64,000 nucleotides of DNA, from sequence record NC_022968.1; one strand, given 5' to 3'. The position numbers were made by a program, and so were the translations under genes. Positions within the stretch are counted from its first letter, which is position 1, and the number at the start of each line of letters is the position of its first letter. Below, piece after piece: positions 31,292 to 31,366 of the stretch. Under the pieces are notes generated by a model. The model saw nothing but the letters and a program-made list of their open reading frames with translations, was not told where the DNA came from and did not search any database. This DNA is from Escherichia phage 4MG.

Positions 31292-31366
31292 TGCGCCCTC
31301 CCAGACTCGAACTGGGAACCCTGAAGTCTTAAGCCTCATGCCTCTACCAGATTGGACCAAGAGCGC
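31292..31366 (-). tRNA. tRNA with Leu-type anticodon TAA but short variable arm
   Basis: 75 nt, perfect T-arm CCCAG/TTCGAGT/CTGGG, anticodon loop CTTAAGA (G37), A73, CCA encoded. Confidence 0.55.

Follow-up and report, generated by a model that had tools for sequence, protein, structure and literature searches.

A short-arm tRNA-Leu(UAA) in the tRNA cluster of Escherichia phage 4MG and its type I relatives in phages and Actinomycetota

This work describes a short-armed leucine tRNA gene, tRNA-Leu(UAA), carried by Escherichia phage 4MG (sequence record NC_022968.1). The whole stretch of DNA analyzed, referred to here as the window, spans 64,000 nucleotides (nt) of this record and holds a large tRNA cluster in which the gene lies. 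We consider it probable that the gene specifies a functional leucine tRNA of the type I shape, rare in bacteria, which is charged by the host's leucyl-tRNA synthetase (LeuRS) and decodes UUA and UUG within a phage tRNA set. According to textbooks and a 2019 paper on Streptomyces, bacterial tRNA-Leu is almost always long-armed and the LeuRS of Escherichia coli accepts type II tRNAs only; the only two Leu tRNAs of the enterobacterial phage studied here are short-armed, a pattern that conflicts with the published view of E. coli LeuRS. Leu tRNAs with a short arm make up a large and strongly conserved family that spans phages and Actinomycetota. The short shape is common among phages and not special to this one, and the window Leu(UAA) is a normal member of a common, under-described class, which makes for a modest result where a single gene is concerned.

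Structure and conservation of tRNA-Leu(UAA)

The Rfam tRNA model RF00005 matches positions 31292..31366 of the minus strand over its full length (model positions 1-71) at 46.3 bits, compared to a gathering score of 29 bits, with E=1.1e-6 when the window is searched as a whole. The ARAGORN call, tRNA-Leu(taa), spans 31289..31366 and takes in an encoded CCA. The complete RNA, read 5' to 3' from the minus strand (the original prediction gave no strand), is GCGCUCU-UG-GUCC-AAUCUGGUAGA-GGC-A-UGAGG-CUUAAGA-CUUCA-GGGUU-CCCAG-UUCGAGU-CUGGG-AGGGCGC-A-CCA. By sequence reading, the acceptor stem GCGCUCU/AGGGCGC has 7 pairs, one of them G.U; U8 and G9 are present; the D stem consists of three pairs (G10-C25, U11-G24, and C12-G23) followed by a C13.A22 mismatch and encloses the D loop AAUCUGGUAGA; and the anticodon stem UGAGG/CUUCA has 5 base pairs. 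The original prediction had described a 75-nt gene with a perfect T arm, the anticodon loop CUUAAGA, G37, A73, and a short variable loop, and each of these features is borne out by Rfam, ARAGORN, and the sequence itself.

Class II tRNAs are defined by a long variable arm of >10 nt that forms a stem-loop, and the variable loop of Leu(UAA) has only 5 nt; alignment with the E. coli class II genes leuZ and leuW leaves a gap of 8-10 nt at this point. A Leu anticodon combined with a variable loop of 4-5 nt defines the type I tRNA-Leu shape, and this is the combination found here. A Leu anticodon, A73, and a Leu-type D loop are all present in the gene.

Relatives of the gene were collected with the search pattern CCAATN{0,1}TGGYAGAGGCN{27,28}TTCRA, which joins the D-arm motif to the T loop at class I spacing. 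The pattern leaves the anticodon, the discriminator, and the variable-loop sequence free, while its spacing of 27-28 nt largely fixes the length of that loop at 5 nt. The D arm of the resulting clade can be written GYCC-AAU(N)UGGYAGA-GGC, which the window sequence fits. Among the matches listed, Leu anticodons occur in 119 of 120 from viral contigs (where the search found at least 120 loci) and in 121 of 123 from bacterial and archaeal contigs sampled at one genome per species. Taken together, 240 of the 243 matches listed are Leu-anticodon tRNAs, and all six types (UAA, CAA, UAG, CAG, GAG, and AAG) are represented. The 232 members that could be parsed among these matches without exception have A73 and U48, neither of which is part of the pattern, as well as a 5-nt variable loop, which the pattern largely requires.

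A single body that, among the matches listed, occurs only with anticodons of the UUR and CUN Leu boxes, which have nothing but the amino acid in common, is what would be expected of a tRNA that receives leucine from an enzyme blind to the anticodon. Such a restriction of the anticodon is the strongest evidence here for the predicted leucine identity of the family. The fold is conserved as well. In an alignment of 142 members, 98.8% of the cloverleaf is paired, 16 of 20 pairs (4 of 5 in the T arm) have changed in a compensatory manner, and the covariation score is 0.832 versus 0.10-0.16 for controls with slid partners. A covariance model built from these 142 sequences (R1), of which the window Leu(UAA) is one, ranks that gene first in the window at 72.1 bits, followed by the second short Leu tRNA of the phage, Leu(UAG), at 60.2 bits, Trp at 59.5, and Glu at 57.1.

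BLAST searches with the 78-nt gene matched 183 phage records. These matches belong to the Vequintavirinae (Seunavirus, Mydovirus, and Certrevirus), to T5-like Demerecviridae (Klebsiella Sugarlandvirus and Pectobacterium phage My1), and to T4-like Vibrio phages (KVP40). The same search against 5,426 complete E. coli genomes returned no match, and a host origin was rejected on this basis. T5 was also rejected as the source, as its only Leu tRNA is a class II tRNA with a UAG anticodon and its tRNA-like RNA "rna3" is unrelated.

Orthologs in Cronobacter phage GAP31 (D856_gt005), Enterobacter phage EC152, the Sugarlandvirus KpGranit, My1, and KVP40 (tRNA-Leu-2) are 78-97% identical to the window copy and share its length (74-78 nt), type I shape, A73, and D arm. 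All of these records annotate the gene as tRNA-Leu, and the architecture goes uncommented in every one. The KVP40 copy differs in having A37; this phage has three Leu tRNAs (UAA, CAA, and UAG), all of 77-78 nt and with a common D arm. In My1, the short UAA tRNA is found together with a class II UAG tRNA. Acceptor stems vary between phage families: the KpGranit copy has an interior nearly identical to that of the window copy and an acceptor stem that is wholly different yet complementary.

A set of 14 orthologous copies taken from Enterobacterales and Vibrio phages has standard pairs in 98.8% of pair cells, compensatory change at 15 of 20 pairs (6 of 7 in the acceptor stem), and a covariation score of 0.633, compared to 0.09-0.20 for slid-partner controls. 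The fold of Leu(UAA) is under selection in phages whose hosts have only class II tRNA-Leu of their own.

Variants of the gene occur in related phages. In the certreviruses F1M1E, PBES02, and DU_PP_I, the same slot directly after tRNA-Cys is occupied by a type I Leu tRNA with a CAA anticodon and A37. Relative to the UAA of the window, this amounts to an anticodon switch inside the UUR box on one body. The variable loop of the DU_PP_I gene has 7 nt. Anticodon arms also come in two forms. The window copy shares the regular arm UGAGG-CUUAAGA-CUUCA with CspD17, KpGranit, and My1, and the arm in GAP31, LNA4, KB57, and Mydo reads UGGGU-GUUAAGC-(U/C)CCCA, where position 31 is mismatched (U31.U39 or U31.C39) and G32 could pair with C38.

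Short Leu tRNAs were further surveyed in viral contigs by a scan that is blind to architecture, in which the anticodon loop CUUAAAA is followed by GGUUCGAAU 10-40 nt on, and tRNAs of 80 nt or less are counted as short and those of 82 nt or more as long. Among the matches listed, there were 57-58 distinct short versus 41 long Leu(UAA) tRNAs, a sample bounded by the chosen loop and T-loop sequences and in which some single-tRNA contigs may hold host tRNA genes. At loci with at least three tRNAs, the matches listed were 37 short versus 16 long. Every Leu(UAA) listed from this sample has A73. The short form of Leu(UAA) is the majority in the viral sample, and its D arms are more varied than the motif.

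Outside phages, many Actinomycetota have a solitary chromosomal type I tRNA-Leu; most of the genomic matches listed are solitary genes of this phylum, and a few lie in tRNA arrays. Solitary genes with UAA or CAA anticodons occur in Nocardia, Gordonia, Mycobacterium, Corynebacterium, Rhodococcus, and Arthrobacter, and those with UAG occur in Amycolatopsis, Kutzneria, and Allokutzneria. The actinomycetotal sequences are nearly identical across genera. Judged by these data, bacteria seem to carry short-arm tRNA-Leu much more often than one would gather from the 2019 Streptomyces paper. The original prediction had suggested that the short shape is a systematic property of the Leu decoders of this phage. 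This is true insofar as both of its Leu tRNAs are short, but the property is not confined to this phage, given how widespread the short form is in viral contigs and Actinomycetota.

Charging, decoding, and retention of the gene

The reported determinants of E. coli LeuRS are A73, A14, A15:U48, G18G19, A20a, G18:U55, G19:C56, and U54:A58 (PMC9976931, Giege and Eriani; PMC6614811). The enzyme needs neither the anticodon nor the long arm, and a minimal tRNA-Leu without both arms is still charged (PMC9976931, PMC6614811). Direct reading of the sequence finds all of the listed determinants in the window Leu(UAA). Because the tRNA has every one of them, along with a leuZ-like D loop, we infer that it is charged by the host LeuRS.

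In the proposed pathway, the gene would first be transcribed together with its neighbors in the minus-strand array, and RNase P and 3' nucleases of the host would trim the transcript, which has its CCA already encoded. Host LeuRS would then attach leucine, and the charged tRNA would decode UUA and UUG. In combination with the UAG tRNA, which would read CUN, it would provide a minimal set of two tRNAs for the six Leu codons, and the near-complete, mostly U34 repertoire of phage tRNAs would sustain phage translation whatever the state of the host tRNA pool.

Several observations weigh against a functional leucine tRNA of this kind. The LeuRS determinants, although necessary, do not suffice and are shared with other tRNAs, as several other members of the cluster have both A73 and A15. 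An extra D-loop nucleotide (AAUCUGG versus AAUUGG/AAUCGG) shifts G18G19 by one, such that the gap from A15 to G18 is three bases (UCU) in the window copy versus two in E. coli tRNA-Leu and most family members. The type I tRNA-Leu(CAA) of Streptomyces coelicolor was not charged by E. coli LeuRS in vitro (PMC6614811); the C48 of this tRNA, as opposed to the U48 of the family, may account for that failure. Literature searches turned up no expression or aminoacylation data for Leu(UAA) or any of its orthologs.

Decoding may be affected as well. TrmD requires G36 for methylating G37. With G37 following A36, the A36-A37-A38 motif is removed, and both i6A37 and the TrmL methylation of U34 would be lost; phage Leu(UAA) would be under-modified at positions 37 and 34, and its decoding of UUR codons may be weaker than that of the host tRNA. 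The motif is needed for i6A37, on which TrmL methylation of U34 depends (PMC9976931).

The failure of E. coli LeuRS on the sole bacterial type I tRNA-Leu tested also bears on an alternative reading, in which Leu(UAA) is not a working Leu adaptor. Either LeuRS would fail on it, leaving a decaying gene or a nontranslational RNA, or another synthetase would charge it and UUR codons would be read as a different amino acid. The odd anticodon arm of the GAP31, LNA4, KB57, and Mydo orthologs (the 31.39 mismatch and G32/C38) and the presence of other aberrant tRNAs in the cluster are in keeping with this reading. We nevertheless regard it as very improbable, given that compensatory evolution is seen in all variable helices across phages of Enterobacterales and Vibrio, that conservation is strict for the anticodon (UAA or CAA), for A73 and U48, and for the D arm, and that the CCA is encoded. 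In addition, none of the 240 family members listed has a non-Leu anticodon, as expected if the body is charged with leucine whatever its anticodon.

If Leu(UAA) is a functional leucine tRNA, the reason for its retention by the phage is a separate matter. Under codon compensation, which is how phage tRNAs are classically explained, the phage would use UUA and UUG beyond what the host tRNA pool supplies. The G+C content of the window (46.5%) is lower than that of enterobacterial hosts, and enriched codons match other phage tRNAs: ACA (3.6x) matches Thr(UGU), AGA (3.2x) matches Arg(UCU), and AAG (2.8x) matches Lys(CUU). For the Leu(UAA) codons themselves, the trend is reversed. Based on 63 window open reading frames (ORFs; heuristic calls from 64 kb of phage) and 41 ORFs from a 50-kb E. 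coli sample as a stand-in host, UUA is used 4.9 times per 1000 codons in the phage versus 10.2 in E. coli, which places it among the codons most depleted in the phage, and UUG is used 8.0 versus 10.5 times. The original prediction had proposed to check whether the pair of Leu tRNAs supplies codons that are rare in the host; for UUA and UUG the outcome is negative, as the phage uses both less than E. coli does. As for other Leu codons, CUA is equal in the phage and the E. coli sample, and CUU is 2.3-fold enriched in the phage. The codons most enriched in the window are ACA, AGA, CCU, and AAG, of which CCU (2.8x) matches Pro(UGG). Codon compensation may thus hold for some tRNAs of the cluster and not for Leu(UAA), for which we judge it improbable. 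The better-fitting explanation is a self-sufficient tRNA set that would keep the phage translating while host tRNAs run short or come under attack, a role by now documented for phage tRNAs for Tyr, Lys, and Thr.

The failure of codon compensation also leaves room for an anti-defense role, a possibility that we take seriously while thinking it unlikely. Here, Leu(UAA) would decode Leu and yet be kept for its ability to escape host factors acting on class II tRNA-Leu. Owing to its missing long arm and its "wrong" purine 37, the phage tRNA would withstand immune tRNases directed at the variable arm or the anticodon loop and would do without TrmD and MiaA, all of which is compatible with decoding. 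Phage tRNAs that resist host tRNases have been documented for Tyr (Retron-Eco7 PtuAB; Septu cuts tRNA-Tyr in its variable loop), Lys (PARIS), and Thr (P2 OLD). A shortened anticodon stem is one route by which phage tRNA-Thr resists P2 OLD (PMC12445682), and anticodon-loop changes have been proposed as an evasion route (PMC10264068).

Position 37 offers indirect support, since the purine is opposite to that of E. coli in both phage Leu tRNAs (G37 in UAA versus A37 in leuZ, and A37 in UAG versus G37 in leuW). Among type I Leu tRNAs, the rule that A36 is followed by A37 and G36 by G37 holds in 72 of 73 solitary chromosomal genes, 66 of 103 viral genes, and 8 of 16 genes from genomic tRNA arrays, counts that carry no correction for shared ancestry, which limits their support for an anti-defense role. 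Two other points speak against this role: literature searches found no tRNA-Leu-directed defense nuclease in Enterobacterales, and the type I shape, which many Actinomycetota have as their usual chromosomal form, does not have to be a means of evasion. In its general form, the proposal is that selection has favored the armless shape and the swapped purine 37 in the Leu tRNAs of mobile elements, where they would hide or free Leu decoding from host factors directed at class II; it is a tentative one that we hold to be rather doubtful.

The tRNA cluster and its other members

The window belongs to the genus Seunavirus of the Vequintavirinae, and its tRNA region is 91% identical to those of GAP31 and EC152. 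The cluster (Table 1) lies between a structural module (tape measure, portal, and terminase) and nucleotide-metabolism genes (NAPRTase, ligase, and ribonucleotide reductase). Its tRNAs serve all 20 amino acids, with anticodons that mostly have U34, and the Leu(UAA), Arg(UCU), and Cys genes are separated by gaps of only 1-6 nt. A15 occurs in many tRNAs of the phage and was discarded as a Leu-specific marker.

Table 1. Positions of the two Leu tRNA genes, their parts, and their surroundings in the window
Feature	Coordinates	Strand	Basis
tRNA-Leu(UAA), type I (class I architecture), 75 nt	31292..31366	-	Rfam RF00005, ARAGORN, family model R1
3' CCA, genomically encoded	31289..31291	-	Sequence ...GCGCA CCA; within ARAGORN coordinates
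Acceptor stem 3' strand AGGGCGC and discriminator A73 (31292)	31292..31299	-	Pairs with 31360..31366; sequence and Rfam alignment
T arm CCCAG-UUCGAGU-CUGGG, perfectly paired	31300..31316	-	Rfam alignment
Variable loop GGGUU, 5 nt, U48 at 31317	31317..31321	-	Rfam alignment
Anticodon loop CUUAAGA	31327..31333	-	Anticodon UAA 31329..31331, G37 31328; Rfam alignment and direct reading
D arm GUC(C)-AAUCUGGUAGA-GGC, family signature	31340..31357	-	Alignment with E. coli leuZ and leuW; motif search
tRNA-Leu(UAG), short, 74 nt, CCA 28428..28430, A37	28431..28504	-	ARAGORN; Rfam 50.8 bits
Arg(UCU), immediate downstream neighbor of Leu(UAA)	31208..31282	-	Cluster listing
Cys, next downstream neighbor	31130..31206	-	Cluster listing
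Co-oriented cluster, ~28 tRNA or tRNA-like genes including both Leu tRNAs	28179..34878	-	ARAGORN, Rfam; homologous clusters annotated in GAP31 and EC152

Leu(UAG), the other short Leu tRNA, has relatives of its own in 210 phage records. Its D arm, UGAUGG-AAUUGGUAUAC, aligns with and resembles those found in class II tRNA-Leu from T5, My1, and E. coli. The gene has the look of a former class II Leu tRNA whose long arm was lost. A single family comprising both short Leu tRNAs was ruled out, because R1 fails to part Leu(UAG) from non-Leu tRNAs and because the D arm is class II-like. The two genes had been described as independent, and the D arm and the R1 scores indeed place them in separate lineages. 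The class II Leu(UAG) of T5 also has A37, and in Shigella phage Sf14 the Leu-TAG is reported to carry a mutation at this position of the loop (PMC12482277).

No long-arm Leu tRNA is detected in the cluster by ARAGORN or by Rfam; the long-arm members are three Ser tRNAs, one Tyr tRNA, and an odd one with an Asn anticodon. In GAP31, the nearest relative with a complete genome, all 26 annotated tRNAs lie inside the homologous cluster and both tRNA-Leu are likewise short (77-78 nt). The original prediction of two class I Leu-anticodon tRNAs with no long-arm counterpart is therefore supported. Automated annotation did not reassign the pair or supply a class II Leu tRNA in its place, and the orthologs are annotated as tRNA-Leu, including by tRNAscan-SE 2.0 in KpGranit.

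Class II Leu tRNAs hidden among the long tRNAs or those found by only one tool were also considered and rejected. The candidates at 29459..29542 and 28179..28257 are a Lys(UUU) tRNA and a CAU tRNA, respectively, each with an enlarged D loop, and that at 29197..29285 has a long arm together with a GUU anticodon and G73. No phage-encoded LeuRS or other aminoacyl-tRNA synthetase was detected by Pfam among the 10 largest ORFs of the window (a LeuRS would have ~800 amino acids or more).

A spacer of ~300 nt without tRNA genes (31367..31669) lies upstream of Leu(UAA), between that gene and Arg(GCG), and is of similar length in GAP31. It contains no Rfam match and no convincing promoter or ORF, and a promoter and terminator scan around the Leu(UAA) gene was uninformative.

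Other members of the cluster depart from the standard tRNA form. The Lys(UUU) tRNA (29459..29542, minus strand) and the CAU tRNA (Met or Ile2; 28179..28257, minus strand) each have a D-loop insertion of ~10 nt; both were missed by ARAGORN and found by Rfam (50.5 and 45.0 bits, respectively), and their GAP31 counterparts are annotated as tRNA-Lys (87 nt) and tRNA-Met (82 nt). The tRNA-Ser(UGA) at 29548..29636 (minus strand) has an apparent 8-base-pair acceptor stem, GGAGAGCA/UGCUCUCC, and U73. With permissive Rfam settings, its match was to the model for selenocysteine tRNA, RF01852 (34.1 bits, below the threshold of 47), and not to the general tRNA model, and it may be an 8/4-type, "allo-tRNA-like" Ser tRNA. 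ARAGORN also reports a tRNA of unknown type at 30264..30333 (minus strand), with a two-base anticodon (a shortened anticodon loop) and without CCA, whose GAP31 counterpart is marked as a pseudogene. Lastly, a Gly(UCC)-like tRNA at 30428..30498 (minus strand) scores 27.2 bits, just below the Rfam threshold, and is annotated as tRNA-Gly in GAP31.

The long-arm tRNA at 29197..29285 (minus strand) may be more unusual than the short Leu(UAA). This class II tRNA of 86 nt plus CCA combines the Asn anticodon GUU and G73 with an acceptor stem, GGUUCUU/AGGAACC, that is nearly that of the normal tRNA-Asn of T5. Its D arm, ACCG-AGAGGCCGA-UGGU (C11:G24), and its 17-nt variable arm have a Ser-like look. In GAP31 and EC152, the stem of the variable arm shows a compensatory change (UGGA/UCCA to GGGA/UCCC). 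The tRNA was found in 19 phage records, including rV5-like and giant Salmonella phages, with weaker matches to tRNA-Ser of Pseudomonas phages. Judging from these elements, AsnRS (anticodon and G73) and SerRS (long arm, G2:C71, C11:G24, and G73) are both plausible charging enzymes, and in the latter case serine might be inserted at AAY codons.

Relation to known leucine tRNAs

The gene raises the question of whether gammaproteobacterial LeuRS charges short-arm Leu tRNAs and, if so, through which elements. Such tRNAs are candidate compact, Leu-accepting scaffolds for tRNA engineering, and annotation pipelines name them from the anticodon alone. Our literature search, in which most subscription-journal papers fell outside the scope, found no paper describing short-arm Leu tRNAs in phages. 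The nearest mention concerns mycobacteria, where a tRNA-Leu(TAG) with a short variable loop is noted in one sentence, without analysis, as part of a horizontally transferred tRNA cluster (PMC6582537). Like the window gene, it is a short-loop Leu tRNA in a mobile tRNA array that coexists with class II Leu tRNAs of the host; it differs in anticodon and host.

Among host tRNAs, the class II E. coli leuZ (UAA) is a close counterpart, sharing A73, U8 and G9, a D stem of 3 base pairs with a 13.22 mismatch, A15:U48, and a standard T loop. The D loop of the window gene, AAUCUGGUAGA, compares with AAUCGGUAGA/AAUUGGUAGA in E. coli tRNA-Leu and is nearly identical to the leuZ form, AAUCGGUAGA. In contrast, leuZ has 87 nt, a long variable arm, A37, and the A36A37A38 motif for ms2i6A, whereas in the window gene the variable loop has 5 nt, position 37 is G, and the D loop is longer by one base.

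Animal mitochondrial tRNA-Leu(UUR) has the same type I shape, with a UAA anticodon and the identity elements A73 and A14. This is a likeness of shape, with no relatedness claimed: the mitochondrial tRNA is organellar, has a floppy structure, and is served by a dedicated mitochondrial LeuRS.

The best-characterized bacterial example is the tRNA-Leu(CAA) of S. coelicolor, described in a paper that also states that almost all bacterial tRNA-Leu are type II (PMC6614811). This type I tRNA is charged by its own LeuRS and by human mitochondrial LeuRS (Fan et al. 2019, NAR; PMC6614811), and the E. coli enzyme that did not charge it has a leucine-specific domain reported to favor a large variable region (PMC6614811). 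It resembles the window gene in its Leu anticodon, 5-nt variable loop, A73, and U8:A14, and leucine acceptance has been shown for the Streptomyces tRNA (PMC6614811). It differs in being chromosomal, in its CAA anticodon, and in its variable loop, ACAGC, which has C48 in place of the U48 found in the window gene and in all 232 parsed family members listed. The Streptomyces tRNA is charged by an actinobacterial LeuRS with a specialized leucine-specific domain, and its comparison with the D-arm family is by description only. As type I tRNA-Leu is already known from S. coelicolor (2019) and from mitochondria, the window gene is a new member and not a new kind, in a setting, an enterobacterial phage, that the papers found do not discuss.

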